Part shown: positions 3,864 to 43,030 of the stretch, piece after piece
How positions within the stretch are numbered: position 1 is the stretch's first letter
Layout: each line of letters opens with the position of its first letter
Assembly: GCA_964470965.1 (NCBI GenBank)
Contig: CAYYIS010000010.1
Location: forward strand, 25,581 to 89,580
Direction: 5' to 3'
Source: an uncultured Gemmatimonadota bacterium
GTDB taxonomy: Bacteria > JAAXHH01 > JABIQT01
DNA: 64,000 nt
Notes under the pieces: model-generated
Told to the model about the DNA's origin: nothing
Databases searched by the model: none
The model's input: the letters and a program-made list of their open reading frames with translations, nothing else
Translations under genes and position numbers: made by a program

Positions 3864-4298
3864 ATGCAAGGCATTTGGGCAGGCGTATGTATTTTTACCT
3901 GGATAATGGTTGCCCCGCCGGAATCCTTCGGTCAGCCGGACTCGGTCGTCGTAGGCAAGCGTCCAGCGGTTGTAGAACTTCTTCACCTGCCATCTCCGAC
4001 CGGCGCGTTACTCCGATCGACTGCCCTACCGGGATGGGGGCAATTCTACAACAGAAAACCGCTGAAGGGAGGCCTCTTCCTGATCCTCCAGGCGGGCCTG
4101 TTCACCGGAGTTCTGCTGCAAAGGGATCAGGCGCAGTCCGGTGGTCTAACGCCTCTAGGAAATACTATGCTGCTCGGGCTGATCGGCGTCCGGATTTTCA
4201 GTATAGCAGATGCCTATGTGGATGCACACTTTGCGGATTTTGATCACATGACGGGGAGAAATACAGGCGTGGTCTTAGGTTTACGGGCGAAATGGTGA
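3864..4298 (+). CDS. Small membrane or secreted protein of a PG(W/L/A)GQxY-motif family (DUF5683-like). Two paralogs lie at 37.2-38.6 kb.
   Basis: Motif LPGWGQFYNRKP; hydrophobic segments; SD aggaga 6 nt upstream of the ATG. Confidence 0.5.
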   Translation: MQGIWAGVCIFTWIMVAPPESFGQPDSVVVGKRPAVVELLHLPSPTGALLRSTALPGWGQFYNRKPLKGGLFLILQAGLFTGVLLQRDQAQSGGLTPLGNTMLLGLIGVRIFSIADAYVDAHFADFDHMTGRNTGVVLGLRAKW

Positions 4299-7985: not shown

Positions 7986-8606
7986 TTAAAGCCCACCCTC
8001 GTCAAAAATCTGCCTGAGGCCGGTTGCTACAAATTGTGGCTCATCTGCGTGACGGAACCGGTAGCGGAGTTTGCCGCGGTGATCGATCAGGTACAGCCAG
8101 GTGGAATGGTTCATCAGGTACCCGGCGGCCGTTTCACCTTCCACTTTCTCGTAAGATGCGCCATATTGCATCACTACTCCGTCGATCTCATCCGGCGTAC
8201 CCGTAAGCCCGAGCACATCGATAGTAGAGAAATACTGCAAATACTCCTTCATCTGCTCCGGCGAGTCTCGGCCCGGATCGATGGTGATGTAAAGGGTGCG
8301 GATTTCCTGGTCATCCTTTAAATCCGCCATCTCGAACACGGTGGTAAGTTTGGACATCAATGTCGGGCAGGCATCGGGACAAAATGTATAACCGAAAAAT
8401 ATCAGAAACACGGTGCCCCGATTATCATGGAGATTGAACGGTAGTCCGTTATGGTCCGTAAGCGTGAAGTCGCCACCGAAATCCCCGTAGTCCTGGAATG
8501 CGGGGATATCCGCGGAGGGAACGATCGCCGGCGATTCGGGTTCAGGGCCGCACCCGAAAGCGACAGCGAGGAGCAGGCCCAAAAGACTACAACGCATGGG
8601 AGACAT
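7986..8606 (-). CDS. SCO1/SenC copper chaperone (thioredoxin fold)
   Basis: CPDACP CxxxC motif; lipoprotein-like signal; about 200 aa. Confidence 0.85.
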   Translation of the reverse strand: MSPMRCSLLGLLLAVAFGCGPEPESPAIVPSADIPAFQDYGDFGGDFTLTDHNGLPFNLHDNRGTVFLIFFGYTFCPDACPTLMSKLTTVFEMADLKDDQEIRTLYITIDPGRDSPEQMKEYLQYFSTIDVLGLTGTPDEIDGVVMQYGASYEKVEGETAAGYLMNHSTWLYLIDHRGKLRYRFRHADEPQFVATGLRQIFDEGGL

Positions 8607-8611
8607 AGGGG

Positions 8612-9097
8612 CTATTCCCCTGAAGCCGGTTGCGTGGTGGCCCCGGCCGAGTTTTCGGATTTCCTGACAAACGCCTTGGCTATCCGGGTTGTCTGATCTT
8701 TGAAATACAGGATCAGAAACACACTGTCGTCTTCCGCGGGCTGTGATTTCATGCCGAACAGCATCAGGTGGTATCCACCCGGCTTCAACTCCGCTTTGCT
8801 GCCGCCCGGTATCACGATTTCGGAAACGGGCCGCATTTTCATCATTTCATTTTCGTAGGCCATCTCATGTATCTCGACAGTATCTGCCTCCACTGTCTCC
8901 ACCGCTAAGAGTGCATTGTCCTGCAGGGATTTATTTTCAATTACCATGAACCCGGCGGTCACGTCACTTGACGGCGGCGCGGCCCGTATCCAGGCATCGG
9001 TTATCTGGATCGGATCCCGTTGCTGACAACTGACACCGATCACGACGAGGACCAGTAAAACGCGATAGTCTAAAAGTTTCCATTTCATATCGGCCAT
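8612..9097 (-). CDS. Periplasmic copper chaperone PCu(A)C (DUF461)
   Basis: H(M)x10Mx21HxM-type motifs: IHEMAYENEMMKMRPV and GGYHLMLFG; signal peptide. Confidence 0.75.
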   Translation of the reverse strand: MADMKWKLLDYRVLLVLVVIGVSCQQRDPIQITDAWIRAAPPSSDVTAGFMVIENKSLQDNALLAVETVEADTVEIHEMAYENEMMKMRPVSEIVIPGGSKAELKPGGYHLMLFGMKSQPAEDDSVFLILYFKDQTTRIAKAFVRKSENSAGATTQPASGE

Positions 9098-9103
9098 AGT
9101 AGG

Positions 9104-9592
9104 TTATTTGTCAGAGTCCTGTAGTGCATTGATGTAGTAGGCAATTTTGACACGTTCGTCGCCGTCGATATGGGGAAACGCCGGCATCGCGGACGAGGCG
9201 CCCGCCACACCCCAGTTGATCGTTTTCGCTATTGAGCGTATGGTCCGGCCGTTTTGATAGACCGCCCGATTCCGAAAATCTCCGGGTTGTGGTTTCAATG
9301 TGACTGCCACCGGGCCATCTCCGCGCCCTTCCATGCCATGGCACAACGCGCATCCGTGTTGTCTATACAACACGTGACCTTCCTGGATTAACGCCGCCGT
9401 GGCTCCTGTGGAATCGAGAACCGTCTGGGCATCCGCATCATGCTGAATCCTCCGTGCCAAAACCGACTCGGGCGTAGGGCAGCACGCGCCATCCGTTTCT
9501 ACCACCGGCAGAGGCCGAAGATCCGCGCCTTCGCATGCGAAGTACAGAAGACAAGCAAACGACAACAGAAGAAGTTTGAAATATCTTGACAT
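9104..9592 (-). CDS. Class I monohaem cytochrome c lipoprotein. The true start is likely the internal Met at 9592; the longest ORF extends to 9919 and overlaps vanZ.
   Basis: CALCHGMEG haem-binding site; lipoprotein-like signal LLYFAC. Confidence 0.65.
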   Translation of the reverse strand: MSRYFKLLLLSFACLLYFACEGADLRPLPVVETDGACCPTPESVLARRIQHDADAQTVLDSTGATAALIQEGHVLYRQHGCALCHGMEGRGDGPVAVTLKPQPGDFRNRAVYQNGRTIRSIAKTINWGVAGASSAMPAFPHIDGDERVKIAYYINALQDSDK

Positions 9593-9707
9593 CGGAATCC
9601 ATTCACCGGTGTTTAAACCACAACAAGACGTTCGGGCAAGACAAAATACGCTGCTTTTTCTTGAAGTGTCAAGAGGATAAGAGCAGGCGGCGAAATTCTC
9701 CAGAGAC

Positions 9708-10133
9708 TCAGCCTTTATTTTTACTTCGCTTCCTCCGTACACACATGATACACGCCCCCAGAATGGCGCCGGCAGTGTTTCTGATGATGTCTTCCACTGC
9801 GGGATAGCGCTGCGGCACAAAATATTGATGCGCCTCATCTGATATACCGTACAGAACGGTAGCGGCCAAACCAATCCAGATAGGGTTTTTATGACCCCTG
9901 AAGCGTAGAGCCCGGACAAGCAGGAGCATTAGAATACCAAATTCCGTGACGTGGACGGCGTCTTTGATACGTTGAATATGTATAGGGTCCTTCATGCCTG
10001 AAGCCTGCCGGGTTGCCTCATCCGCTTCGCCTCCCGGAAGAGAGGATCCGATGAATATCAGAAGTGCCCAGAGAAACGGCGGCCACCAGGCTGCCGCGCG
10101 GGATTTGGTGGGTGATGTCATAGAGATCCGCAA
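9708..10133 (-). CDS. VanZ-like family membrane protein
   Basis: SDEAHQYFVPQRY and multiple TM helices typical of VanZ-like proteins. Confidence 0.6.
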   Translation of the reverse strand: MRISMTSPTKSRAAAWWPPFLWALLIFIGSSLPGGEADEATRQASGMKDPIHIQRIKDAVHVTEFGILMLLLVRALRFRGHKNPIWIGLAATVLYGISDEAHQYFVPQRYPAVEDIIRNTAGAILGACIMCVRRKRSKNKG

Positions 10134-10449: not shown

Positions 10450-11424
10450 TTAGGCTATATCCATAATGGCCTGAGTCACTATGTTCTGAGTCATCTCGAT
10501 TTTGTATTCATTATCGCTCATCGGGTCGGCTTCTTGCAATGCTCGCTGAGCCGCTTCCATTGCGACCGATTCCGTGATCTGCTTGCCTTGCAGGTATTGC
10601 TCCACCTCCGGTACACGCCAGGGTACCGGGGCCACGCCACCCAGCACCACACTGGCTTCCTGGCAGGTGTTGCCTGACATGGTCATGTTGAGCGCCACGC
10701 TGGCCATGGCAAAGTCGATGGAATCCCGCTCACGAACTTTGATGTAGATGCCCTTCGTGTTTGGTTTCGGTGCGGGGACGATGATCTCGGAGACGAATTC
10801 ATTCGCCCGCAGGCCGTTTTCGCGCATCACGTTCATCTCGGGCAGCACGAAGAAATCATCCAGGAGTTCAACCCGTTCGCCCCGCTGCCCCATGATTTTC
10901 ACGGAGGCGTTGAGCGACATCAATGCCACGGCCGAGTCTGACGGATGGACGATGTAGCAGGGACCGCCGCCGATGATGGCGTGGTACCTGTTGACTCCGC
11001 GAACCGAATAGCAGGTATCCCCGCCCTTCTTGAGGCAGTCGAAATCCTCGCTACGGTAGTACCAGCAGCGAGGCCTCTGGCAGATATTTCCGGCGATCGT
11101 GCCTACATTACGGATCTGTGGCGACGCGATCACGCTAACAGCCTGCTGTAGCACGCTGTATTGTTTGTCGATCATTTCGTTGTGTTCCACATCCGTGAGC
11201 GTTGTGAGCGGACCGATCTTCAATCCGTCGTCTTCCTGGCGGATGTAACTGAGTCCAGGAATTGATTTTAGGTTCACCACACGGTCCGGTGTGGCTATGT
11301 ATTCCTTCAATTCGCCGACAAGATCGGTACCGCCGGCCAGAACCTGGGCCTGGCCGAATCTCCGGCCAAGGAGAGACGGCACCTTGGCGGCGCTCGTCGC
11401 ATTGACGTAGGCAAATTTTTTCAT
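10450..11424 (-). CDS. Xanthine dehydrogenase/CO dehydrogenase-family FAD-binding medium subunit (CoxM/XdhB-like)
   Basis: AGGTDLVGELK FAD-binding motif of molybdopterin dehydrogenases; about 324 aa. Confidence 0.85.
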   Translation of the reverse strand: MKKFAYVNATSAAKVPSLLGRRFGQAQVLAGGTDLVGELKEYIATPDRVVNLKSIPGLSYIRQEDDGLKIGPLTTLTDVEHNEMIDKQYSVLQQAVSVIASPQIRNVGTIAGNICQRPRCWYYRSEDFDCLKKGGDTCYSVRGVNRYHAIIGGGPCYIVHPSDSAVALMSLNASVKIMGQRGERVELLDDFFVLPEMNVMRENGLRANEFVSEIIVPAPKPNTKGIYIKVRERDSIDFAMASVALNMTMSGNTCQEASVVLGGVAPVPWRVPEVEQYLQGKQITESVAMEAAQRALQEADPMSDNEYKIEMTQNIVTQAIMDIA

Positions 11425-11427
11425 AAT

Positions 11428-13650
11428 TTATCCCTCCCTCACTTCAGCCAGAGCGGCCAGCACTTTATCCGGTGTAACGGGTATTGCCCTTACGCGCGCT
11501 CCACATGCATTATAAACCGCATTGGCGATGGCCGGCGCTGTCGGAATGATCGGGGGTTCGCCGATGCCGATGACACCGCGCTCCGGCTGATCATAGGCCA
11601 CGACCTCGATCTCCGGAATGTCCATGGCGCCGATGACCCGGTAGGCTTCCAGATTAGGATTGACCATGTAACCGGCCCGGGGATCCATGATGCGTTCTTC
11701 GTAGAGTCCGTATCCGATACCCATCAACACACCACCGTTGACCTGGCTTTCCCACAGTAATGGATTCATGATCAGGCCGCTGGAATTCACCGCCACGACA
11801 CGTATTACTTTCACTACACCGGTTGCCGTGTTCACTTCCGCCTCGACGAATTGTACGGTGGGGACACCGCTGCTGGAGTAGCCCGGCACCCATTGCCCCT
11901 GGACTATAAGGGGCTCATCACCCAACTGTGCCGCCGCTTGCTGCCAGGTCATGCTCTTGGACGGATCCGACGTGACGAACACCTTGCCGTCTTTTGCTTC
12001 CAGATCGTGCGGCGAAACGCCGAATATTGAGGAGGCGAATGTATCGAAAAGTTTCAATTTCGCCATCTGTACCGTGTTCTTCACTGCCGGTGATACGGAG
12101 GCGCACGTGGTGCTGCCGCCGCTACCGCCCGAGGGCGGGTAGTTGGTATCACCGATCTTAACGATGATATCTTCCAGGGTCAGACCAAATTCTTCCGCTG
12201 CGATCTGGGCGATAACGGTCTTGGTTCCCACACCTACATCTTGAGTGCCGCACCGGATTTCAACACTGCCGTCCGGATGAATCACACCTTCTGCCTTGGT
12301 CCTTCCGCCGCCACCGCCCCATACGCCAGAGCCCATTCCCATGCCGCGTTGAATGCCGGTCGCGGGACCCGGTGTCTGCCGGCGTTTGCTCCATCCGAAT
12401 TTCTCGGCGCCGATTTTGACCATCTCCCGCCGGGTTTCATTCGGATCGTTTTTCTGCCGTAATTCCATGGGGTCCATGTCGAGCTTAACTGCCAGCTCGT
12501 CCATGATGGATTCCATCGCGAAAGCAGCCTGTGGATGTCCCGGTGCACGCAGCGCAGCCTGGGGACCGCCGTGTGTGTACACGTCTATCTGTTCGACGCG
12601 AAAGTTAGGTATTTCGTAAAGATAGGGCGCTCCCGGAAGGCCGGCCCGGCCGGCGATACCGCCGGATCCGAAGTTTTTCCGTTTGTACGCCACGATCGTC
12701 CCGTCACTTTTTGCGCCGATTTCCACACTCTGAAATGAATCCGGCCGGTTACCGGTGGTCAGGTGCTCTTCCTTACGGGTGAGCATGAGTTTGACCGGTA
12801 CTCCGGCTTTTCTCGCCAGGAGTGCGGCAACCGCATATTCTGGCCGCGGTCCCAGCTTACTTCCGAAGCCTCCGCCCATGTGGTCTTTGATGACGCGTAC
12901 GTCGGAATTGGGAATCCCGAAGAACTGGGACAGACCGCCCTGGGTCGCGGAGATCGCCTGGGTCGAAGCCCAGAGCGTCAGTTTTCCGCCTTCCCAGTGG
13001 GCGATGGACCCGTGTGTTTCCAGAGACACGTGGGTGTGCACTTCCGTCTTGTAATCCGCGTCGACCTTCACATCCGCTTCAGCAAATCCGGCATTTACAT
13101 CGCCCTGCTCGTTGACGCGCGGTTCGCCGGCGTTGGGCCGGTCGTCCTGAACTTGTGCGGCTCCGTTTTCCATGGCCTTATCCGCATGGACCACGAACGG
13201 GAGTTCCGTATATTCGACTTCGATCAGGTGAAGGGCATCCTCTGCAATTTCTGGCGTCATGGCCGCTACGGCCGCCACTTCCTGGCCGGCATACCGGCAC
13301 TCGCGCCGTAACAGGTCGCCGGCTCCTTCGTCATCCGGAAGAATGACGACCTTCACGCCAGGCAGGGCCATGGCTTGGGTCGCATCGATCCTGGTGACCC
13401 TCGCTCTCGGATAGGCGGAACGCAGGATTTTTCCGTACAGCATGCCGGGAAACTTCATGTCATACGTATATTTTGCGCTGCCGGTGACTTTTTCAACCGC
13501 GTCGATCCGGGTGTGGCGTTGTCCCACATATTTCATGTCAGAGAGGTCGCCCCATCCTTCCACACCGGTGTCCGGCACATCGACCCAACTTTCCACGGTC
13601 TGGCCCCGTCTCCGGGTTACGATTTTAACTTTTTTCATCTTTATCTGCAT
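11428..13650 (-). CDS. Xanthine dehydrogenase-family molybdopterin-binding large subunit (aldehyde oxidase/CoxL-like)
   Basis: MGGGFGSKL Mo-cofactor motif; 740 aa. It lacks the form-I CODH VAYRCSFR loop. Confidence 0.9.
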   Translation of the reverse strand: MQIKMKKVKIVTRRRGQTVESWVDVPDTGVEGWGDLSDMKYVGQRHTRIDAVEKVTGSAKYTYDMKFPGMLYGKILRSAYPRARVTRIDATQAMALPGVKVVILPDDEGAGDLLRRECRYAGQEVAAVAAMTPEIAEDALHLIEVEYTELPFVVHADKAMENGAAQVQDDRPNAGEPRVNEQGDVNAGFAEADVKVDADYKTEVHTHVSLETHGSIAHWEGGKLTLWASTQAISATQGGLSQFFGIPNSDVRVIKDHMGGGFGSKLGPRPEYAVAALLARKAGVPVKLMLTRKEEHLTTGNRPDSFQSVEIGAKSDGTIVAYKRKNFGSGGIAGRAGLPGAPYLYEIPNFRVEQIDVYTHGGPQAALRAPGHPQAAFAMESIMDELAVKLDMDPMELRQKNDPNETRREMVKIGAEKFGWSKRRQTPGPATGIQRGMGMGSGVWGGGGGRTKAEGVIHPDGSVEIRCGTQDVGVGTKTVIAQIAAEEFGLTLEDIIVKIGDTNYPPSGGSGGSTTCASVSPAVKNTVQMAKLKLFDTFASSIFGVSPHDLEAKDGKVFVTSDPSKSMTWQQAAAQLGDEPLIVQGQWVPGYSSSGVPTVQFVEAEVNTATGVVKVIRVVAVNSSGLIMNPLLWESQVNGGVLMGIGYGLYEERIMDPRAGYMVNPNLEAYRVIGAMDIPEIEVVAYDQPERGVIGIGEPPIIPTAPAIANAVYNACGARVRAIPVTPDKVLAALAEVREG

Positions 13651-13654
13651 CGTA

Positions 13655-14323
13655 TCACCCTCCGTTCCGCATTTTCTGCGCGGCGGCGAGAGCGGCCTCG
13701 AAGACCCGCGGATAGGTACCGCACCGACATATATTTCCGGATACTCCGCGTTTCACTTCCTCAAGCGTAGGATTGTTATTTTGATCGAGCAGCGCTTTCG
13801 TGGAAACGACAAAGCCCGGCGTACAGAAGCCGCACATCAACGCATCTTTCTCGATAAACGCCTCCTGAACGGGATGCAGTTTATCGGCGTCGGCGATTCC
13901 TTCGACCGTGGTAATCTCTTTGTCCTCCGCGTCGAGGGCAAGCATGGTACAGCTGTAGACGGTCCTACCGTTGATGATGACCGTGCATGCCCCGCATTCT
14001 CCACGGTCACACACGAGTTTCGATCCGGTAATTTCGAGCTGATTCCTCAACACAGAAGAAAGTGTCGCGCGCGCTTCTATATTCACCAGGTGCTTCTTGC
14101 CGTTTATGTTGAGCTGGATCTGTGTTTCGGTCACACCGGGGAGTTCATCGATCGATTGCTCGGCCTCCGCCTGGCTTATCAGCACGGCAGGGGCCACCGC
14201 GGCCGTCACGGCACCAGTGCCCACCCCTTTTAAGAATCCACGTCTGGTAATCGACAGGCTGCCGGATACCGGTGTCTGAGATTCCTCGTGGATTTGCTGT
14301 CCATCATGTTGCTTCTCAACCAC
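13655..14323 (-). CDS. [2Fe-2S]-binding small subunit of the molybdoenzyme, carrying a twin-arginine (TAT) signal peptide
   Basis: SITRRGFLKGVGTGAVTAAVAPAVL TAT signal; CGACTV and CGFC...C ferredoxin-type cysteine clusters. Confidence 0.85.
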   Translation of the reverse strand: MVEKQHDGQQIHEESQTPVSGSLSITRRGFLKGVGTGAVTAAVAPAVLISQAEAEQSIDELPGVTETQIQLNINGKKHLVNIEARATLSSVLRNQLEITGSKLVCDRGECGACTVIINGRTVYSCTMLALDAEDKEITTVEGIADADKLHPVQEAFIEKDALMCGFCTPGFVVSTKALLDQNNNPTLEEVKRGVSGNICRCGTYPRVFEAALAAAQKMRNGG

Positions 14324-14754
14324 ATTGCCTCCTCCCTCGCATGAAATCAGAGCACGGTATCATTGAATCGGTTCTGTTTTCCGGAGTTAGAGTTAACGGT
14401 GATTATGCGCCAGTGATTCAAGACTATAATGATTGTAAAGATATTGGATTTAAACGCGTTTTCTATGATGAAACAGATTGTATTTTTAATATGCTGACAC
14501 GGATTGCACCGGTCAAGTTATTTCCTATCCTGTTAAAATCGGATTTCCCCGAAGGCACGGATTGCCATAAATAGAATCTAAATTGCAATAATCCCGCTTT
14601 TACATTGAAATTTTTGTTGATGAACACATATTCTTCTGGCGTATTCCTCCCTCAAAACCTTGACTTTTTTAGAGTTTCAGAGTAGTTTAATGGAACAGGA
14701 GCAGAGCGATAAAAAGCAAAATTTCACACATACAACATTCAGGAGGTATGAGGG

Positions 14755-15414
14755 ATGAAAAACGCTGTATTTGGCCTCTTCCTTACGCTTGCCATAGCAT
14801 CTGTGGCACTTGCCCGCACCCCGGTTATTTCGGGAGACTATGTTGAAGTCCGTTCGAATCACATCATAGCCGGCGGGTGCACCTATTCCGCCGAAGCGGT
14901 CTACGATGGCAACCGGGCAGTGATGTCCTGGCGGATCACCGGAGGCGAACTGGCGAACCTTTCGGTTGTAGCGGTAGTCCTGGGGGAGGGCAACCTCCAA
15001 CTGGGCGACCACGCCCGCGAAACCGTCCTTTTCATCGATCACGGTGCCACTCCGGCACAGCTGGTGATGCTGGTGGATACCTTTGTTGAACGTTACGGTG
15101 ATGTGTTCGGTACGATCAAAACAGTCCAGTCGGCAGCTATCGACTTCAGTCATAACGGCGGCGATGCATTCCGGATAACGATTCCCGGTGAAGTCCAGGT
15201 CGTAACCCGCACCATGGTAGAAGCGGACCACGAATATTCATGCGACCCGCAGGTCTGGTACGGTGCGTTCGCCGGTGACGTCCCGGTGCGGCTTGCACAG
15301 ACCGCCAGGAATGCCTACAGCGGCAAGTTGCTGAATTCCAATTGGAAGACGGTCAACAAGCGAAGCGCCTACATCGGTAAATTCTCGTTTGCGGAAGACT
15401 TGGCCGTCCGTTAA
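14755..15414 (+). CDS. Secreted hypothetical protein (219 aa) with a signal peptide
   Basis: MKNAVFGLFLTLAIASVALA signal; SD aggagg; followed by an intrinsic terminator. Confidence 0.6.
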   Translation: MKNAVFGLFLTLAIASVALARTPVISGDYVEVRSNHIIAGGCTYSAEAVYDGNRAVMSWRITGGELANLSVVAVVLGEGNLQLGDHARETVLFIDHGATPAQLVMLVDTFVERYGDVFGTIKTVQSAAIDFSHNGGDAFRITIPGEVQVVTRTMVEADHEYSCDPQVWYGAFAGDVPVRLAQTARNAYSGKLLNSNWKTVNKRSAYIGKFSFAEDLAVR

Positions 15415-15440
15415 GTTTTCAAAACGATTGAAATAGTTAA

Positions 15441-15490
15441 GAACAGCCCTGGCCGTTCATGGACAGGGCTGTTCTATGTTTTGGTATTTT
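15441..15490 (+). terminator. Rho-independent terminator
   Basis: gaacagccctg / cagggctgttc 11-bp stem followed by tatgttttggtatttt. Confidence 0.6.
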
Positions 15491-15669
15491 AGCGTGTACT
15501 TATTATGGGTTGGAGCGTATCATTGACATTGCCGGCTAATGAAGGTTTCTTAATGTTGTTTGTATTGTTTGTAATTAGATTCCCGAAGTCTGTGCAACCT
15601 GTTTTTTGTTAAAGGCTGTTGAGCGTCTTTTGACTTACAAATTACCCACGTCAACAATGGAGGCATAAT

Positions 15670-16191
15670 TTGATGAATTCCCTTATTAGAGTGCGGGCGC
15701 GCAAAGACGATGGCTCGGTAGAACTGACCATTGGTTTCTCTAAAGCATTACTTGTTACCATGATCGTTCTTTCCCTGGGTTTGATTTCTCTGGGGTACGG
15801 TGTTGTGCCTGCCGAGTCTCAGGCAAAAAAGAGCGGTAAGAAGGCCATCAATCCTAACCAGGTCTACAGTGAAGCCGTCGAAGCCGGTGATTTCGTGTTT
15901 CTCTCCGGTAAGATTGCATATCGCCAGGGCAAGGTGGTTCCTGGTGGTGTGAAAGCCGAAACAAAGTACGTGCTGGACAATCTCAAAATCGCACTGGCCA
16001 AGTCGGGACTGGAGATGGATGATGTGGTCCGGACCACCGTATATCTGAAGACGTTGGAAGATTACGCCGGCATGAATGAAGTGTACCAGACCTACTGGGA
16101 AAACGATCCTCCTGCACGGACGACGGTTGAAGCCGGTGTTGTACTGAATACTAGCATTGAGATCGATATTATCGCCTATCGTGGACAGTAG
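15670..16191 (+). CDS. RidA/YjgF/TdcF-family (enamine/imine deaminase-like) protein with an N-terminal transmembrane anchor
   Basis: C-terminal 120 aa match the RidA fold (NPNQVYSEAVEAGDFVFLSGKIA ... TTVYLKTLEDYAGMNEVY); the N-terminal TM is LLVTMIVLSLGLISLGYGVV. Confidence 0.75.
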   Translation: MMNSLIRVRARKDDGSVELTIGFSKALLVTMIVLSLGLISLGYGVVPAESQAKKSGKKAINPNQVYSEAVEAGDFVFLSGKIAYRQGKVVPGGVKAETKYVLDNLKIALAKSGLEMDDVVRTTVYLKTLEDYAGMNEVYQTYWENDPPARTTVEAGVVLNTSIEIDIIAYRGQ

Positions 16192-16378
16192 TCGCGCAAC
16201 CGGATTATGGACCACTGAACGTTGGTCGGTCGGACAGGAAAAAACCCTTGTCCCCGTACACTTTTCGATTTATATTGATTCGTGCTGAATCGGGAGGATT
16301 CGAAACCAATTGCCGTAGTGCGCGTATATCCGCTTTATAGAACATTAGTTTTAGTTTCATTATACAGGAGGCGTTACA

Positions 16379-16903
16379 ATGAAGCGTTTTTTAGCACTTT
16401 TTGCGGTATGCACGGCCCTTTCTATCGTGATGGGGCCGTCCGTCACCTTTGCCCAGCATGACGACCCTGATATGGAATGGGAAGACATGGATGAGATGGC
16501 GGAAGATGAAGGCGTGGAGGGGGTAGAGTCCAAAGTCCTTTACGAACGCTGGGGCGGCAAGGTCGCTATCAAGGGCGTGGTCAGCGAATTCACCTCCCGT
16601 GTCCTGGGTGACGAACGTGTCAACATGCACTTTTTGGAAACCGATAAGGCTGCTTGGCGGCTGCAGCTGGTCGGTCAGCTTTCCGATGCTTCGGGCGGTC
16701 CCATGTTTATGGGCAAGACCCTCCTGGTTATGCACCAGGACCTTGGATTGGCTGATGAAGATCTGGCGATTGTTACGGGGCATTTGAGCATGGCCATGGA
16801 CTGGTTCGAGTTCGAGCAGGCTGAAAAGGACGAACTTCTGGTGAAATTGAAGCTCAAAACACCTGAAACAGCGGCACCCGATGCGCCTGAAGAACCCAAT
16901 TAA
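16379..16903 (+). CDS. Secreted group-I truncated-haemoglobin-like protein (2/2 globin) with an acidic N-terminal extension
   Basis: VLYERWGGKVAIKGVVSEFTSRVLGDERVNMHF aligns to the trHbN B-helix region. The proximal His (LLVMHQDL) is retained; the B10 position is Thr rather than Tyr; signal peptide ends ...FAQ. Confidence 0.6.
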   Translation: MKRFLALFAVCTALSIVMGPSVTFAQHDDPDMEWEDMDEMAEDEGVEGVESKVLYERWGGKVAIKGVVSEFTSRVLGDERVNMHFLETDKAAWRLQLVGQLSDASGGPMFMGKTLLVMHQDLGLADEDLAIVTGHLSMAMDWFEFEQAEKDELLVKLKLKTPETAAPDAPEEPN

Positions 16904-16925
16904 AACCATAATGAGGAGTGATTGG

Positions 16926-17327
16926 ATGAAAAGAGATAAAAGCTCTCTCGCTGTGGTTATAGTGGGCGCTTTTGCCATGGGAGCATTGTTCACACTCGGA
17001 ACATTATCCTCTGGTGTCTCGCTTGCCCAGGACAACGCTGACGCTGGGTCTGCCATTTTCAACGACCATGAATGCCGGGGTTGCCACACGGTTCAGGCTG
17101 CGAAAATCGAATTAGATATCGGTGAACTTGAGCCGGATGAGGTGGATGAGGACGCTCCGGATCTGTCCGACGCCGGGCTCAAGCATGATCAAGAATGGAT
17201 CAAGCAGTATCTGAAGAAGAAGGTAAAGCTTAACGATGAAAAGCATGAAAAGAAATTCCGCGGTACCGATGAGGAATTCGAAACGTTGACTGCCTGGTTA
17301 TCTGCGTTGAAGACCGAAGCAAAGTAG
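16926..17327 (+). CDS. Monohaem c-type cytochrome (periplasmic) with a Lys/Glu-rich C-terminal tail
   Basis: CRGCH motif; signal peptide; SD aggagtg. Confidence 0.7.
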   Translation: MKRDKSSLAVVIVGAFAMGALFTLGTLSSGVSLAQDNADAGSAIFNDHECRGCHTVQAAKIELDIGELEPDEVDEDAPDLSDAGLKHDQEWIKQYLKKKVKLNDEKHEKKFRGTDEEFETLTAWLSALKTEAK

Positions 17328-17353
17328 AACTGCAGTAAGAAGGGGATACACGC

Positions 17354-18007
17354 ATGCCCGCTCCCTCTATACCTGGTGCCTTTATCATAATCCCCATTGT
17401 GCTGGCGATGGTCTTGGCCTGTATCGTTATTGCCAAACCCGCTATTCTCAGAAACGGTGCCGGGCAGATCTTAGGTTTTTTTGCGCTGTTCCTCCTTCCG
17501 ATCTCGGTCGGAGGAATGGGGGGCGCCATCCTCGACGACAATGCCCAAACTACGGAATACTGTCTATCCTGCCATATTATGGACGACTGGGGCCGGAGTC
17601 TCCATGTGGATGACAGTGAGTTTGTTCCGGCCGATCATTTCCAGAATTATTTGGTCTCCCGTGATAAATCATGTTACGTCTGCCATTCAGACTATGCGTG
17701 GTACGGGGGGATAACTGCCAAAATCCGCGGTATGAAGCATGTGTATGTCCAGTATATCGGGACCATGCCCGAACCGCTTGACATAGAACTGTACGAGCCG
17801 TTCAACAATCGGGAATGTTTGCAGTGCCATCAGGGCGCCCGGAGCTATGAAGAGAGCAGGCATCACCGCAAAGAAGGGGACATGCTCGCCCGGATCAACA
17901 GCAATGCACTCTCCTGCATGGAGAGCAAATGCCATGACGTCCAGCACAATATTGATGAGCTGGACGATTACGATGAAGATGAATTCTGGCAGGAGACAAT
18001 GGATTGA
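17354..18007 (+). CDS. Membrane-anchored multihaem cytochrome c (NapC/NirT/NrfH-like quinol dehydrogenase type)
   Basis: Two N-terminal TM helices; CLSCH, CYVCH and CLQCH plus an atypical CMESKCH (CX4CH) site. Confidence 0.65.
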   Translation: MPAPSIPGAFIIIPIVLAMVLACIVIAKPAILRNGAGQILGFFALFLLPISVGGMGGAILDDNAQTTEYCLSCHIMDDWGRSLHVDDSEFVPADHFQNYLVSRDKSCYVCHSDYAWYGGITAKIRGMKHVYVQYIGTMPEPLDIELYEPFNNRECLQCHQGARSYEESRHHRKEGDMLARINSNALSCMESKCHDVQHNIDELDDYDEDEFWQETMD

Positions 18008-18210
18008 TGCTTGCTCACCTTATGTCTTTTGAACGCGGTGTTCGGATATCCGGTGGTCTTGTCCTTTTGGGGCTGGTCATCGAAATAATAACGCTGAACT
18101 GGTCGCATCCAACCGCGATAATCTGGTACATGACGATCGGCGGCGGATGTTTTTTTATCGGTGTTGTGTATTATCTAGCGTTACTGATGTGGAGTAATAA
18201 AGAGGAATAA
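18007..18210 (+). CDS. Small 2-TM membrane protein (about 67 aa), translationally coupled to the multihaem cytochrome
   Basis: The start overlaps the upstream stop (TTG/ATG ... TGA); two hydrophobic helices. Confidence 0.35.
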   Translation: MLAHLMSFERGVRISGGLVLLGLVIEIITLNWSHPTAIIWYMTIGGGCFFIGVVYYLALLMWSNKEE

Positions 18211-18308
18211 CCGATCTCCCGCTATCCAACCGTATCATCCCACCGTACAGAAGACAATACAGTTTCGTATGAGAACAGGTTCTTCCAGCCTGTCTGGAGT
18301 AATTCCAT

Positions 18309-18968
18309 ATGAATAAAAATTCTAAGCTTTCTCGCCGTTCGTTTTTATCTCGTTCCGTTGCTGTTACGGGTGGTATTATCACTCTGGGTGTACTCGGTGT
18401 ACCCCGGAAGGCCAAGGGACAGGATGCATATGAGTTTGAAGTGTTGACAGACCGCCAGGCCGCGACGGTCGAAGCACTGGCTGAACGAATTATGCCGGGG
18501 GATTCGAACGGACCAGGCGCCACCGATGCACGTGTAGTCGTGTACATCGACAGGGCGCTGGCCACCCATCATGAACATGAAAAAGAAGAAGTCTACGATC
18601 ACGGCCTGGAGTGGTTTGATCGGTTTTCCACAGCGACCCAGGGCAAACCGTTTGTGGAATTGACTGCCGACCTGCAGGATGCGGTGCTTTCCGCTATGGA
18701 TAATCGTCAGAATCCGCCGGAATGGCCGGGTGAAGCCGCCATGACGAGCAGGGCCTGGTTGCGTCACATGATTGAGCATACGATGGAAGGTATGTTCTCC
18801 GATCCCATTTACGGTGGTAATACTAATGAAGCAGGTTGGAAGCTGCTCAATTTCCCCGGTCTGAAACCATTCGGGTACGACCCTCCTTTCGGTTACTATG
18901 ATGCGATCATACCGGAACTTGAATATCCTCCTTTTATACCGTATACAGGTCCGGGTAGAGAAGGATAG
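18309..18968 (+). CDS. Gluconate 2-dehydrogenase subunit 3 family protein, the TAT-signal small partner subunit of GMC dehydrogenases
   Basis: SRRSFLSRSVAVTGG TAT signal; conserved TDRQAATVEALAERIMPGDSNGPGATDARVVVYIDRAL region. Confidence 0.8.
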   Translation: MNKNSKLSRRSFLSRSVAVTGGIITLGVLGVPRKAKGQDAYEFEVLTDRQAATVEALAERIMPGDSNGPGATDARVVVYIDRALATHHEHEKEEVYDHGLEWFDRFSTATQGKPFVELTADLQDAVLSAMDNRQNPPEWPGEAAMTSRAWLRHMIEHTMEGMFSDPIYGGNTNEAGWKLLNFPGLKPFGYDPPFGYYDAIIPELEYPPFIPYTGPGREG

Positions 18969-19004
18969 TGCTGGATCTGAATTTATATCATTCGAGGAGT
19001 ACAG

Positions 19005-20651
19005 ATGCCATATTTGCCCAATCCTAGAATCGATAATCCGGACGTCATCGTGATCGGAACCGGCGCTGCCGGTGGGGTGATGATGAAAGAGCTGGCCAGG
19101 TCGGGGTTGAAGGTGGTTGCGCTGGAGATGGGACCGTGGCTCAAAACGCGAGATTACACACAGGATGAGCTTAAGAGTCATGTTTTGAGGGGTTTGATCA
19201 AATACGATCAGCCGAATACATACCGCCGCGCCGCTGAAGAAGAAGCTGAAGCCATGCATTCGATCAACATGCAGTCCAATGTGGGCGGCGCTACGATCCA
19301 CTGGACCGGCATTGCCTGGCGGTACCATGAATCTGATTTTAAAGAGCGCAGTATGTTCGGAACGGTCGAAGGGGCGGATGTCCAGGACTGGCCCCTCGAT
19401 TACTGGGATCTTGAACCGTACTACGAAAAGGCCGAGTACGAATTCGGTGTGTCCGGGCTGGCAGGCGCCAACCCGTTCGATTCACCTCGCCGCAAGCCAT
19501 ATCCCATGCCTCCGGTTGCCAGAACAGCTTCCGGCGCCATTTCGGATTACGCCGCCTCGAGGCTCGGATGGCACTCGTACCCGGCGCCGCTGGGGATCCT
19601 TTCCCGGAATTACGACGGAAGAGCCAAGAGCATGTACTGCGGTTTCTGCGAAGGATACGGGTGTACTGTAGAAGCAAGATCCAGCTCTCTGGTGACCGAT
19701 GTACCTAAAGCTTTGAAAACAGGTAACTGCGAGTTGCGGTCGAACGCCTGCGTTCGTGAAATCACTGTTGACAAAAACGGTCTGGCCAATGGTGTTGTCT
19801 ATCTCGATGAGAACCTGAACGAACATCAGCTGTCGGCCCGTGTCGTGGCACTGTGCGGTAACGGCATCATGTCGCCCCGGGTGCTTCTGTCATCCAAGTC
19901 ATCTCAATTCCCGGATGGCCTGGCAAACCGTAGCGGCAAAGTCGGCAAACACCTTATGTTCAATTACTACCAGGTGGTCCGGGCGTTTTTCGATCAGGAA
20001 CTGAATGAGCACCAGGGTGTGCTGGATACCAGAATCATCCAGGATTTCTACGAACCCAATCCCGATAAATACGGATTTTTCGGTGGCGGTGTGCTCGAAC
20101 CCCGTGGTGACGGCAGTACCATACACTATGCCAATATGAACGCCCCACGTATTCCGAGATGGGGATCGCGCCGTAAGAAGTGGATTATGGATAACTGGGC
20201 CAAGAAGATGTTTGTGGTGACAAGCATGGAATCGCTTTCTCAGGAATCTAACACGATAGACCTCGACCCCAATGTTACTGACAAGTGGGGGCTGGCCGTT
20301 CCTAGAGTAACCTACAACGTCCATCCGAACGAGTGGAAGCTCGGCGATTTCTTCCGGGCCCGTGCTAAAGATTTACTGGAAGCCGCGGGTGCGCGTCAGA
20401 TATTGGCAGGGCGGAACAGTGTTCCACGTGGTGATGCTCACCTTATGGGATCCTGCCGTATGGGTGACGAACCTGAAACATCGGTGTTGAATAAATTCAA
20501 TCAGTCGCATGATGTGAAGAACCTGTTCGTGGTAGATGGCAGTTGTTTCGTCACGTCGGGCAAGAGTAATCCGACGCTCACGATCCAGGCACTCGCCTAT
20601 CGTTCCAGTGAGTATCTCGTCGAACAAATGAAACAAGGGACAATCGGATAG
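19005..20651 (+). CDS. GMC-family FAD-dependent oxidoreductase (flavoprotein dehydrogenase large subunit)
   Basis: VIVIGTGAAGG Rossmann motif; C-terminal NPTLTIQALAYRSSEYL GMC signature; 548 aa. Confidence 0.9.
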   Translation: MPYLPNPRIDNPDVIVIGTGAAGGVMMKELARSGLKVVALEMGPWLKTRDYTQDELKSHVLRGLIKYDQPNTYRRAAEEEAEAMHSINMQSNVGGATIHWTGIAWRYHESDFKERSMFGTVEGADVQDWPLDYWDLEPYYEKAEYEFGVSGLAGANPFDSPRRKPYPMPPVARTASGAISDYAASRLGWHSYPAPLGILSRNYDGRAKSMYCGFCEGYGCTVEARSSSLVTDVPKALKTGNCELRSNACVREITVDKNGLANGVVYLDENLNEHQLSARVVALCGNGIMSPRVLLSSKSSQFPDGLANRSGKVGKHLMFNYYQVVRAFFDQELNEHQGVLDTRIIQDFYEPNPDKYGFFGGGVLEPRGDGSTIHYANMNAPRIPRWGSRRKKWIMDNWAKKMFVVTSMESLSQESNTIDLDPNVTDKWGLAVPRVTYNVHPNEWKLGDFFRARAKDLLEAAGARQILAGRNSVPRGDAHLMGSCRMGDEPETSVLNKFNQSHDVKNLFVVDGSCFVTSGKSNPTLTIQALAYRSSEYLVEQMKQGTIG

Positions 20652-20667
20652 GGGGTTGTGAACAGGA

Positions 20668-21462
20668 ATGAAAAACATGTACCGAGTTTATCTGCCCGTG
20701 GTTATGATCATATTCTGCCTTTCCGTTAATGGTACATCCCAGGCACAGGAAAAAGCATATGGAAAAGGAGCGACATCCTGGAAACAGGTTGACGGTCCTT
20801 TCTTCGAAACATGCAGCATGTGTCATCAACGGCTTGGAGAGCGGCTTTCTTCGCAGGTTCTCGAATGGCGTAATAGTGTTCATTTCCGTAACGGCGTCTT
20901 CTGCGATTCCTGCCACGGCGGAGATCCTACCAGTACGGTCCTCACTATATCCATGGGGGAAGCCGCGGGGTTCCAATCGGATCCCAGTCCGCAGGAAACG
21001 CCTGACTTCTGCGGTCCAAGTTGCCATCCGACGGCGTTTACCATCAGCGAAGCCAATATTCACACGGAAGACTTTGAGGACAATGACTGGGAACCGAATT
21101 GTGTGACCTGTCACGGCAGCCACGAAGTGCAGGAAGTGAGTCTGGACCTGGTCTCCCTCGAGGAAAAGACCTGTGGTCCGTGCCATTCCCGTGCTTTCTA
21201 TATCCGTCAGACGGAAAAACAATCGCTCACAGATGCGCACCAACTTGTAGAAGATCTGTACATTCAGTTGGAAACGATGCCCGAACAACCCATAAAAAAT
21301 ACCATTCGTGTCCGGCTGGACAAGGCATTCAAAGATCTCCGGGGGCTGGCGCATTACTTCAATCGTCGGCAGATCCGGGCATCCAAAGCACCTATCGACA
21401 GAGAACTGACCTACATTAAATCAATTTTGGATTTCAGGGAAAGTGATGTATTGCGTCAGTAG
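20668..21462 (+). CDS. Multihaem cytochrome c subunit, likely the electron acceptor of the GMC dehydrogenase
   Basis: Four CxxCH motifs (CSMCH, CDSCH, CVTCH, CGPCH) plus a CGPSCH (CX3CH) site; N-terminal signal or anchor. Confidence 0.75.
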   Translation: MKNMYRVYLPVVMIIFCLSVNGTSQAQEKAYGKGATSWKQVDGPFFETCSMCHQRLGERLSSQVLEWRNSVHFRNGVFCDSCHGGDPTSTVLTISMGEAAGFQSDPSPQETPDFCGPSCHPTAFTISEANIHTEDFEDNDWEPNCVTCHGSHEVQEVSLDLVSLEEKTCGPCHSRAFYIRQTEKQSLTDAHQLVEDLYIQLETMPEQPIKNTIRVRLDKAFKDLRGLAHYFNRRQIRASKAPIDRELTYIKSILDFRESDVLRQ

Positions 21463-21500
21463 GATCACTGGTGGAAAAAGAGGTAGTACAACCACACAAT

Positions 21501-21550
21501 GAAAGCCGCCCCAGACTCAATATGAGGCGGCTTTCATTGTGTATTGTCTT
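21501..21550 (+). terminator. Rho-independent terminator closing the dehydrogenase/cytochrome operon
   Basis: gaaagccgcc ... ggcggctttc 10-bp stem with a 16-nt loop, followed by attgtgtattgtctt. Confidence 0.7.
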
Positions 21551-21927
21551 CCTGTAACACTGATGTCCTGTGTGCCGAAAGGTATCACCGTCGAAGGCGA
21601 TGTTGAAGCTGCTGCCGGGGAGTCTGTTGAAATTTGTCACATCCCAGTTCTATTCGGTGAAAACAGAAAAATGGACTGCCGCCACTGACTTATTTCTTGT
21701 CATTTCTCCATTTGAGGTTCTAGTTAGGATTTTTTAAATAGGAAGATCCTCACGTCATAGTCACCGGTCCAGAATAGTAAGTGAATAGTTCACGAACGCC
21801 CAACCGATGTAGAAGCGGTTGTCTAACCTGCGCGATTTTTTCTTGCGACAACGGCCGCAGTGGTGTAGTTTAGAACAGTATGGCAAGCGAGCCATTTCGA
21901 GCCTCCCACATCTTCGGATTGAGACCT

Positions 21928-22986
21928 ATGAAAAGACGCACCCTCATCGCTGCTGCAGGACTGGCTACCGGAGCCCTGATCGGCGCCGAATATTATCTTC
22001 GTTACCGGAATCGCATGATCAACCGCGACCGTTGGTTCCACGAAAGCTACGACGGTTCTCAACCCTATCAGGTGTTTCACAACCGCAGCGGCTGGGAACT
22101 GATGCCAGATTATAACGTCGCGGGTATTCGGATCAATCAGTACGGTTTTCGGGGTGAAGATTTCTCCAGATCGAAAGACGCCGATGTTAAGCGGATAATC
22201 TGCCTCGGCGATTCCACCACATTCGGCCTTGCCGGCGATGAATCGCCCTATCCTTACCATTTGCAACAGCATCTGGGTGACATGGAGCTCCAGTCGCCCT
22301 ACCAGGTTATTAACGCTGGGGTAGAGGGACACAGTTCGGTTAACGGGCTGCTTCGTCTGCCGTGGCTCATAACGCATAAACCGGATATCATGATCATATA
22401 TCTCGGATGGTCCGATTTGTGGATCAGCAACCCGGGTCGTTACCCTGATTTGCGGCGGAAACCGCGGTCGTTCTGGCATTACGGTAACGGACATCATTCC
22501 AGTCTGATGATGTTAGACACGGTTAAGGATGCCCTCGGGTTCAACGGTTATGACCCACCGATCAGTTCCTTTGATCTGGACACGTTCGTGCCAACAAACT
22601 TTGAATTTAACATGAAGCAGATCATCCGGACCTGTAAAAAAGAGCAAATCAGAACCGTTCTGGTGACGCTGCCTACCCTTATCCCCTCTTGCGTGGACCA
22701 GTCGTCCCTGGGGAAGGAGATGCTGGAGAAGTTACGGTATCCAGCCTTTTTCTCACCGGGTGATCTCGACAGCCTGAAGCAGTTATACGAAGTGTACGAC
22801 ACCACGATCCGTACGCTGGCGTACGAAGAAGATGTCGACCTGGTCGACATCAACGACGGTTTCGAAGCCTTTGATAACCGCCGTGACCAGTACTTCCTGG
22901 ATACCAGCCATCCGAATATCGACGGTAACCAGTTGATCGCCCAGATTTTGGCGAATGGGTTATACGACCGCGGTATCGTTGGATAA
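21928..22986 (+). CDS. SGNH/GDSL-family hydrolase with an RR-containing signal peptide
   Basis: ICLGDSTTFG GDSL motif; MKRRTLIAAAGLATGALIGA signal; internal start chosen at 21928. Confidence 0.7.
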   Translation: MKRRTLIAAAGLATGALIGAEYYLRYRNRMINRDRWFHESYDGSQPYQVFHNRSGWELMPDYNVAGIRINQYGFRGEDFSRSKDADVKRIICLGDSTTFGLAGDESPYPYHLQQHLGDMELQSPYQVINAGVEGHSSVNGLLRLPWLITHKPDIMIIYLGWSDLWISNPGRYPDLRRKPRSFWHYGNGHHSSLMMLDTVKDALGFNGYDPPISSFDLDTFVPTNFEFNMKQIIRTCKKEQIRTVLVTLPTLIPSCVDQSSLGKEMLEKLRYPAFFSPGDLDSLKQLYEVYDTTIRTLAYEEDVDLVDINDGFEAFDNRRDQYFLDTSHPNIDGNQLIAQILANGLYDRGIVG

Positions 22987-37838: not shown

Positions 37839-37848
37839 AGGAGACACC

Positions 37849-41877: not shown

Positions 41878-41984
41878 GGGCTAAACCGCAGAACTTTCCT
41901 GCATGAGGTAGAGAGCGTGTGGGATTGTGGTGGTGTGGGAACCATTCTAATTTTTTCCTCCCCCTCCCACATCTTTTCTCAAAA

Positions 41985-42959: not shown

Positions 42960-43030
42960 GATTTACTCCTTTCGGTGATGGTAATATAACAAGGTTGCTT
43001 TTGAGGTCCAAATCATTATATACGGTGGCG

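Follow-up and report, generated by a model that had tools for sequence, protein, structure and literature searches.

A gene at positions 16379 to 16903 of the 64,000-nucleotide stretch of uncultured Gemmatimonadota DNA analysed here (contig CAYYIS010000010.1; the whole stretch is called the window) encodes a predicted exported group-I truncated haemoglobin (trHb) that belongs to a family marked by an invariant peptide near the N-terminus. We tentatively propose, with a confidence that falls a little short of an even chance, that this protein (the query) is a periplasmic haem-b globin serving as the ligand-reactive end point of a cytochrome chain, and that it carries a probable metal-binding tag. 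An original prediction, made from the letters of the DNA alone, had singled out a signal peptide and a Thr at position B10; by themselves these two features are fairly ordinary within the clade described below. It had missed an invariant AQHDDP(D/N)MEW block, the loss of the proximal His F8 in most members of the family and a fixed cytochrome/dehydrogenase operon. The family-level picture is the more interesting one: an invariant tag, repeated loss of a His held to be 'strictly conserved', and a genomic context split between copper genes and cytochrome genes. The gene and its parts are:

16379..16903, plus strand: gene for the exported group-I truncated-haemoglobin-like protein, a complete open reading frame (ORF) of 174 amino acids plus stop
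16366..16371, plus strand: Shine-Dalgarno sequence AGGAGG, 7 nt upstream of the globin ATG, read from the sequence
16379..16453, plus strand: Sec (type I) signal peptide, residues 1-25, MKRFLALFAVCTALSIVMGPSVTFA, assigned from its n/h/c anatomy and the -3/-1 rule
16454..16483, plus strand: tag QHDDPDMEWE, residues 26-35, assigned from family alignments and codon comparison
16484..16531, plus strand: variable acidic linker, residues 36-51, DMDEMAEDEGVEGVES, assigned from alignment, the ratio of nonsynonymous to synonymous substitution rates (dN/dS) and AlphaFold2 (AF2)
16532..16858, plus strand: 2-on-2 globin domain, residues 52-160, assigned from Pfam PF01152, phmmer against the PDB, AF2 and Foldseek

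The profile, the predicted fold, the GG motifs and the F8 His all place the query among the group-I trHbs. The Pfam profile PF01152 (Bac_globin) matched residues 54-155 at 30.7 bits (E 4e-7; gathering cut-off 21), so that the globin similarity on which the original prediction depended is present, and phmmer against the PDB returned the cyanoglobin GlbN (2ksc, E 2.6e-8) and M. tuberculosis trHbN (1idr, E 2.6e-7). An AF2 model built from a 78-sequence alignment superposes on trHbN and has a predicted local distance difference test score (pLDDT) >90 over residues 51-160; its top 27 Foldseek matches were all group-I trHbs, the best of them trHbN (target-normalised template modelling score 0.74-0.83, root-mean-square deviation (rmsd) 1.9-2.5 A). 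The two GG hinge motifs (AB, G59G60; EF, G106G107) are invariant or nearly so across the family. When residues are mapped on trHbN, B9 is Phe71, CD1 is Phe85 and G8 is Val132, and F8 is His119 (codon 16733-16735), which aligns with His81 of trHbN and is kept in all nine members of the query's own type. The assignment to the group-I 2/2 haemoglobins, with a GG motif and a proximal His in LLVMHQDL, is therefore confirmed.

The same mapping upholds the earlier alignment of SEFTSRV with DFYVRV and the change from Tyr to Thr at B10: Phe71 is present at B9, B10 is Thr72 (codon 16592-16594), and the PheB9-TyrB10 pair, which stabilises bound ligand, is absent. E7 is Trp93 (codon 16655-16657), E11 is Leu97 and E14 is Gln100. 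With Thr, Leu, Trp and Gln at B10, E11, E7 and E14, the distal pocket lacks the usual hydrogen-bond donors. The description of B10 Tyr as normally invariant did not survive, since Tyr occupies B10 in about 80% of trHbs (Bustamante et al. 2016, PMC4720485) and in only 101 of the 356 closest domains counted below. Judged from these sequences, Tyr B10 is a variable functional feature and no bar to membership of the trHb family. Leu at E7, E11 and G8 in clade N has been linked to low O2 affinity, apolar distal sites lower O2 affinity via a high koff, and the F8 proximal His has been described as strictly conserved in trHbs (PMC4720485).

The best-conserved part of the protein in alignments of the closest homologues is the tag block and not the globin domain. 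This block, A-Q-H-D-D-P-(D/N)-M-E-(W/L), spans residues 25-34 (nt 16451-16480); H27, D28, D29, P30 and M32 are invariant and W34 is nearly so. A profile search found the tag in at least 63 clusters at 90% identity, including a large Gemmatimonadota group with ...HAQHDDPNMEWVMDGPLYDRLGG... in this region. There are 12 distinct nucleotide versions of the tag; almost all of its degenerate codons vary synonymously among them, and the sole amino-acid replacement is D to N. Compared with the diverged homologues of loci L001, L023 and L004, the query tag shows 3-4 synonymous and 0 nonsynonymous differences (0 of 26.7 sites; the roughly 3 synonymous sites are saturated). The tag sample is biased, having been retrieved partly via the motif itself; a search without motif selection likewise gave only tag-bearing full-length relatives (P0013, P0019, P0028 and P0036). 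When 185,579 species genomes were scanned for HDDPDMEW by exact matching, three real ORFs were found, all of the tag family (in Latescibacterota, Zixibacteriota and one uncultured marine bacterium), together with two chance matches outside ORFs, and within the window the degenerate DNA pattern for this peptide has a single occurrence. The idea that the tag is a general sorting signal was rejected, because this genome-wide exact-match scan finds the motif only in the trHb-like family. In searches of Pfam and NCBIfam no match was obtained outside the globin region of the query, and the 27-residue tag plus linker had no PDB match by phmmer at E up to 10.

The tag is followed by the variable acidic linker. 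Across residues 26-51, 13 of 26 residues are D or E, which bears out the Asp/Glu-rich N-terminal extension noted earlier; the linker varies in length from 0 to about 25 across the family, consists mostly of acidic residues and has a dN/dS of 0.42, above that of the other segments. In the AF2 model of the query, tag and linker have pLDDT <50, and in a short-linker paralogue that lacks the proximal His the tag reaches 55-72; it is undocked in both. As far as the models go, the tag would not be a rigid part of the fold, and they say nothing further about docking. We propose that the tag, tethered by this flexible acidic linker, forms a second functional element of the protein, most likely a His/Met/carboxylate metal site or else a site at which a partner docks.

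Most members of the tag family lack the proximal His. These His-less paralogues share with the query the same kind of signal peptide and the AQHDDP(D/N)MEW tag, and are 33-45% identical to it. The main group has Leu at position F8, whereas P0013 and P0165 have Ser; in a tree of the globin domain the proteins with Ser group as sister to the query type, apart from the clade of those with Leu, and because the two are separate His F8 has been lost at least twice. Other positions that the query type shares with His-containing exported clades have changed as well (B13 Val to Ala, CD1 Phe to Leu, P108 to Glu, F7 to Ser and F143 to Asn). The His-less proteins are nevertheless modelled with the trHbN fold (AF2 pLDDT >90, best Foldseek matches trHbN). 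Many of them score under the Pfam globin threshold and are annotated 'hypothetical protein'; they occur in Gemmatimonadota, Zixibacteriota and others. The metagenome ERZ24794645 contains both kinds, P0007 and P0165, with nearly identical N-termini, which suggests that they are paralogues within one lineage. The His-less tag loci, with positions in each locus, are:

L006 8001-8936; L009 836-1839, minus strand; L012 1080-2992; L013 6001-7511: His-less tag loci
L015 5319-6775; L017 4526-6207; L024-L034: His-less tag loci, continued

The His-less genes (X) stand in a context that is conserved across phyla, namely GHMP kinase - one or two Cof-type HAD hydrolases - X - [CopC - (CopD)] - LarC-like PF01969. 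CopC follows X in four diverged lineages (L006/L007; L009/L033/L034; L012/L024-L029; L032), CopD follows CopC in two of these, and three other lineages have neither; a PF01969 gene (LarC-like nickel insertion) lies downstream in all His-less loci with downstream sequence. This sequence evidence makes the His-less proteins candidates for a natural family of non-haem truncated globins with a link to copper handling. The tag family is defined by its N-terminal peptide and not by haem ligands, with His-less members beside copper-handling genes, and none of the papers that we found mentions the tag or the His-less, copC-linked paralogues.

These observations bear directly on a reading that we regard as unlikely, in which the query is a periplasmic copper (possibly nickel) binding or trafficking protein whose tag is a Cu site, whose globin is mainly a scaffold and whose haem is vestigial or secondary. 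His27, Asp28/29/31, Met32 and Trp34 would then form a Cu(I)/Cu(II) site, a proposal to which we give the same low standing, akin to the His/Met/Trp site in CusF or the sites with an N-terminal His in CopC, YcnI and PCuAC. Such a role is favoured by the tag being better conserved than any other block in the family, whereas His F8 can be lost, by the copC gene next to the globin in four diverged His-less lineages with copD after it in two, and by the LarC-like gene downstream. It also agrees with the window having Sco1 and PCuAC genes with no cytochrome oxidase in view, and with the undocked tag of both AF2 models, as expected for a metal-dependent tail. The query subtype, however, is never beside copC or copD and keeps His F8 in 9 of 9 members, which argues that haem matters here. 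If Gln26 is cyclised, as proposed below, there would be no free alpha-amine for a histidine-brace, an amino-terminal Cu(II)- and Ni(II)-binding (ATCUN) or an X-His site; the tag matches no known metal-binding family in Pfam, NCBIfam or the PDB; the copC linkage may be inherited synteny; and LarC-like proteins are cytoplasmic.

An invariant His and Met on a flexible tether, beside a haem pocket without polar distal residues, could also serve the haem itself. In this alternative, which strikes us as distinctly unlikely, the query would be a six-coordinate periplasmic b-type electron carrier with Met32 or His27 of the tag as sixth ligand opposite His119, and would bind no gas. Endogenous hexacoordination is common in group-I trHbs, for example in cyanobacterial GlbN, the globin sits among cytochromes, and the Met is residue seven of the mature chain, as is Met7 of cytochrome b562 (...EDNMET...; sequence checked in PDB 256b/1apc). 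That last resemblance is a short-motif coincidence between unrelated folds, however, and AF2 does not place the tag on the globin in either the query or the short-linker paralogue. The variation of the linker from 0 to about 25 residues also counts against this alternative, and the tag is equally invariant in the paralogues without His F8, where no His/Met pair could arise in that way.

Elements of the metal and haem readings can be combined. The tag might be a copper/nickel site on an exported 2/2 globin scaffold; in most lineages that scaffold, its haem ligand lost, would then work with CopC and CopD as a hitherto unrecognised periplasmic metallochaperone, and the query would be a minimal soluble haem/copper centre fed by cytochrome c and reducing O2 or NO in the periplasm. 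We think this composite improbable. If it is true, the His-less metallochaperones would be the first natural non-haem truncated-haemoglobin family.

The wider relatives of the query were collected by a HMMER search of 1.84 billion representative sequences, which gave 818 matches at E <1e-3; residues were counted in 356 trHb domains of the 160 closest proteins. B10 was Val in 102 of these domains, Tyr in 101, Leu in 51, Ile in 32, Phe in 23 and Thr in 16, E11 was Leu in 195, and F8 was His in 336. Among the nearest single-domain relatives that carry no tag, 37 in number, there is no exception to Val at B10, Leu at E11, Gln at E14 and His at F8. Signal-peptide-like or lipoprotein-like N-termini were found in 35 of these 37, and in 105 of 149 representative matches, by a crude test of hydrophobicity and charge in which the cytoplasmic trHbN control was negative. 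Thr72 is limited to the immediate sub-branch of the query (seven of nine members, with Val in the other two). As judged from these sequences, the query is one member of a large exported apolar-pocket clade in which a non-Tyr B10 is unexceptional.

This exported trHb1 clade (for example RefSeq Arcicella P0173 and Deltaproteobacteria P0260) contains the nearest relatives of the query, at 31-37% identity. They share with it a signal peptide or lipobox, a non-Tyr B10 (Val in the clade, Thr in the query), E11 Leu, E14 Gln and F8 His. They differ in that most lack the HDDPDMEW tag (exceptions are P0028, P0167 and P0170), in having Leu at E7 where the query has Trp, and in often carrying a Cys pair QIC...GGPC, a likely disulfide typical of extracytoplasmic proteins, where the query has Ser102 and Met109. 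Many members of the clade are tandem repeats of 2 to 11 domains. As a side observation, trHb1 arrays reach 1,882 amino acids (P0011, P0012, P0016, P0017, P0020, P0040, P0045 and others); several carry signal peptides or lipoboxes and some look eukaryotic, and we know of no described function for such poly-globins. The CXXCH motif was absent from all of the 280-odd retrieved relatives, so that there is no cytochrome fusion among them. A literature search for exported or secreted bacterial truncated haemoglobins returned only papers on cable bacteria, and we found no experimental work on the exported clade, which pipelines label 'group 1 truncated hemoglobin'. Work on trHbs has dealt almost wholly with cytoplasmic proteins in which Tyr B10 stabilises the ligand, and exported ones are known so far only as cable-bacteria predictions; the clade is a large, essentially uncharacterised set of exported apolar-pocket trHb1 proteins that, outside cable bacteria, goes undiscussed in the papers found.

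Export depends on the N-terminus being translated. The ATG of the ORF is the most upstream start after a stop. A start codon set wrongly, with an ordinary cytoplasmic trHb beginning at an internal Met (such codons lie at residues 18, 32, 37 and 40) and an untranslated 'signal peptide', is already effectively refuted. The strong AGGAGG stands 7 nt before the first ATG; residues 1-35 are conserved as protein across phyla, with synonymous variation; homologues maintain the hydrophobic pattern; and the Ala-Gln ending of the signal peptide recurs in other exported proteins of the window. Compared with the 86% identical homologue L019, the signal-peptide codons have a dN/dS of 0 at a dS of 0.32, the globin domain 0.12 and the whole gene 0.15, and against more distant homologues the signal region gives 0.15-0.25. 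Every segment of the gene is therefore under purifying selection, and because the signal region stays between 0 and 0.25 the N-terminus is evidently translated. The ribosome-binding site and this conserved N-terminus also dispose of the downstream true start that the original prediction had named as its own weak point. An identical sequence occurs in public assemblies, close homologues derive from metagenome-assembled genomes (MAGs) of Candidatus Latescibacterota, and the annotation of close relatives reads 'group 1 truncated hemoglobin [Candidatus Latescibacterota]'. A minus-strand ORF at 16391-17089, overlapping the globin gene, was dismissed as a shadow ORF that nothing supports.

The signal peptide has an n-region MKR, an h-region of 15 residues (F4-M18; mean Kyte-Doolittle hydropathy >2) and a c-region GPSVTFA, in which positions -3 and -1 are Thr and Ala. 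The tag family never departs from Ala at -1 and Gln at +1, and, with a slash marking the cleavage site, an ending ...A/Q closes about 8 of 10 other type-I signal peptides of the window (VSA/QQ, SLA/QD, SQA/QE, ANA/QD, AFA/QP, AFA/QS and others; the positions concerned are 85-3456(-), 3864-4298, 16379, 16926, 20668, 37209-37967(-), 37849-38613(-) and 41985-42959(-), with (-) for the minus strand). Because of this shared ending we place cleavage most likely at A25/Q26 and not after Q26. The earlier call of a signal peptide ending ...FAQ is thus right in its cleavable-looking layout, which is of the Sec type, and off by one residue in its cleavage site. The predicted mature protein, strongly acidic and of about 149 residues, is very likely exported to the periplasm, and probably starts pGlu-His-Asp-Asp-Pro-Asp-Met-Glu-Trp, with Gln26 cyclised to pyroglutamate. 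Tat (twin-arginine translocation) export was rejected since the N-terminus has no twin arginine. A lipoprotein was rejected too: Cys11 is preceded by Val, lies too near the N-terminus (it would leave a 7-residue h-region) with more hydrophobic sequence after it, and is Ser in Gemmatimonadota members.

Cyclisation of a Gln exposed by signal cleavage is known as the 'Q-rule' of Bacteroidetes and has been described as exclusive to that group (PMC10653852). The A/Q endings and the type IX secretion system (T9SS) genes of this window, whose source is a Latescibacterota-like organism, raise the possibility that the rule extends to other phyla of the FCB group. The type IX secretion neighbourhood lies at 38632-47035 on the minus strand and includes a 1,081-amino-acid FG-GAP/M6-peptidase protein with a Por_Secre_tail, PorV, and a 1,334-amino-acid gingipain-like C25 peptidase with a propeptide.

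The genomic setting of the query type differs from that of its His-less paralogues. Downstream of the globin gene the window contains:

16926..17327, plus strand: monohaem cytochrome c, 133 amino acids, with one CRGCH and a signal peptide ending SLA/Q (Pfam PF00034)
17354..18007, plus strand: membrane-anchored NapC/NirT/NrfH-like tetrahaem cytochrome (Pfam PF03264; TIGR03153 below its curated cut-off)
18004..18210, plus strand: 68-amino-acid membrane protein overlapping the stop codon of the NrfH-like gene, with no Pfam or family match, conserved in L001, L004, L019 and L021
18309..18968, plus strand: Tat-signal small subunit of the gluconate 2-dehydrogenase subunit 3 family (Pfam PF13618), with the twin-arginine motif SRRSFL
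19005..20651, plus strand: GMC oxidoreductase (Pfam PF05199, PF00732)
20668..21462, plus strand: exported pentahaem cytochrome, c7/c3-like, with five CX2-4CH and a signal peptide ending SQA/Q

Upstream of it lie:

14755..15414, plus strand: exported DUF1326 protein (Pfam), upstream neighbour of the globin
15670..16191, plus strand: RidA/L-PSP-family protein (Pfam) with an N-terminal hydrophobic segment, separated from the globin gene by a 187-nt gap

The cytochrome c gene starts 22 nt after the globin stop codon, and a monohaem cytochrome c adjoins the globin wherever the sequence of a query-type locus continues downstream (L001-L005, L019-L021 and L023). The haem motifs of the NrfH-like protein, which has two predicted N-terminal membrane helices, are CLSCH, CYVCH, CLQCH and CMESKCH, the fourth being CX4CH and not CXXCH. 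The pentahaem cytochrome is conserved in L004 and in a 27-kb contig carrying the homologue P0003, and the DUF1326 and RidA-like pair is conserved upstream of the query-type globin in L001, L010 and L022; an extracytoplasmic RidA would be unusual. The order of the query type is DUF1326 - RidA-like - globin - monohaem cytochrome c - NrfH-like - 68-residue membrane protein - small subunit - GMC - pentahaem, and from the globin to the pentahaem cytochrome it holds from 98% down to 51-54% identity. All nine query-type members, recognised by His F8 and a W58 'ERWGG' signature, are in this cytochrome string and none is next to copC or copD. A scan of 14300-22000 for promoters and terminators gave no more matches than shuffled sequence did, and a weak resemblance to a promoter at 16248-16276 is at chance level. 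The periplasmic setting suggested by the original prediction fits these neighbours, which are exported cytochromes c and a Tat-dependent flavoprotein dehydrogenase.

We propose the following scheme for the query as a haem-b globin at the end of this chain. After cleavage at A25/Q26, the periplasmic protein would bind haem b through His119, and the adjacent, presumably co-transcribed monohaem cytochrome c would keep the globin haem reduced. The NrfH-like tetrahaem protein would wire that cytochrome to the quinone pool, and the pentahaem cytochrome would wire it to the periplasmic GMC flavoprotein dehydrogenase. Small apolar ligands (O2, NO, CO) would still reach the iron, the pocket would do little to stabilise bound O2 for want of Tyr B10 and Gln E11, and the globin would perform non-energy-conserving O2 reduction or scavenging, or NO binding or reduction. 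Haem binding is supported indirectly by the conservation in the query type of His119 and of the pocket residues B13 Val, CD1 Phe, P108 and F143, and E. coli cytochrome b562 shows that a haem-b protein can be exported through Sec. A predicted periplasmic trHb, either fused to a pentahaem cytochrome c or separate, is encoded in every cable-bacterium genome and is postulated to be an O2 reducer (bioRxiv 10.64898/2026.01.20.700514; PMC11976967; PMC7875522).

Several points weigh against this scheme. Haem binding, localisation and electron-transfer partners are all inferred here, and the O2-reductase role in cable bacteria is itself a hypothesis. O2, NO or another substrate fit alike. E14 is Gln where solved trHbs, to judge from the GlbN/trHbN alignment and presumably in general, have Phe, which makes the pocket unlike that of any characterised trHb. 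Gene order may partly reflect inheritance and not function, because it is shared only among related Latescibacterota-like lineages. Finally, since tag-bearing sister proteins lost His F8 twice, the tag would function independently of the canonical haem ligand, and haem chemistry may not have been what the tag family originally did.

The same pocket could serve without turnover. A passive periplasmic NO/CO buffer like cytochrome c', with five-coordinate haem and no dedicated electron input, which would shield the neighbouring redox enzymes by sequestering NO, would suit the apolar distal site (B10 Thr, E11 Leu, G8 Val), the bulky E7 Trp and the predicted periplasmic location. The close homologue P0003 comes from the MAG SI072_bin148; from the isolate name we take SI072 to be a sample of the Saanich Inlet oxygen-minimum zone, where NO and nitrite would be expected, and this too would favour a buffer. 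That the gene is tightly and consistently linked to a dedicated cytochrome c and to a cytochrome of the quinol-dehydrogenase type suggests electron exchange instead, and the annotated window genes include no nitrogen-oxide genes. We consider such a buffer a long shot.

Two further gene groups lie on the minus strand upstream of the globin cluster. At 7986-9919, Sco1/SenC (7986-8606), a PCuAC copper chaperone (8612-9097) and a cytochrome c are found together; the same three genes precede the globin operon on the 27-kb contig with P0003. Among the window ORFs scanned there was no cytochrome oxidase or other copper enzyme that would explain Sco1 and PCuAC. At 10450-14323, divergent from the globin cluster, is a three-subunit molybdoenzyme of the xanthine-dehydrogenase family (FAD, molybdenum-cofactor and 2Fe-2S subunits). 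It is probably a PaoABC-like aldehyde oxidoreductase, and probably periplasmic because its Fe-S subunit has a twin-arginine-like signal, TRRGFLKG.

Compared with the known group-I trHbs (1idr, 2ksc and those of Paramecium, Tetrahymena and Chlamydomonas trHb1), to which it is 24-28% identical at an rmsd of about 2 A, the query shares the 2-on-2 fold, the GG motifs, B9 Phe, CD1 Phe, F8 His and G8 Val. It differs in its predicted Sec export, in B10 Thr instead of Tyr, E11 Leu instead of Gln, E7 Trp and E14 Gln instead of Phe, and in its 26-residue N-terminal tag and acidic linker. Whereas those proteins are standalone cytoplasmic NO dioxygenases or O2 binders, the query is encoded in a cytochrome operon. 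The copper chaperones CopC, YcnI, PCuAC and CusF resemble it in a His right after the cleavage site with Met, Trp and carboxylates nearby, and in that its paralogues are linked to copC/copD; yet the query has no sequence or fold similarity and no Pfam or NCBIfam match to these families, its His is at +2 behind a probably cyclised Gln whereas the histidine brace of CopC-type proteins uses +1, and there is no copC or copD at its locus. E. coli cytochrome b562 is likewise a small, soluble, Sec-exported periplasmic protein with non-covalent haem b and a Met ligand at mature residue seven in an acidic ...DNME... context, but it is an unrelated four-helix bundle, and the resemblance is functional, by analogy only.

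A further parallel is lPHCtX of cable bacteria, which the citing papers describe as a predicted periplasmic trHb plus pentahaem cytochrome and a proposed non-energy-conserving O2 reductase (Kjeldsen et al. 2019, cited in PMC11976967, PMC7875522 and bioRxiv 10.64898/2026.01.20.700514). Compared by description only, both systems would couple a predicted periplasmic trHb to multihaem c-type cytochromes. At the query locus monohaem and tetrahaem cytochromes are adjacent and a pentahaem cytochrome is in the same gene string; there is no fusion, and the hosts of lPHCtX are Desulfobulbaceae, which belong to another phylum. The operon offers a concrete test case for the idea, raised for cable bacteria, that periplasmic globins act as terminal electron sinks of cytochrome chains.

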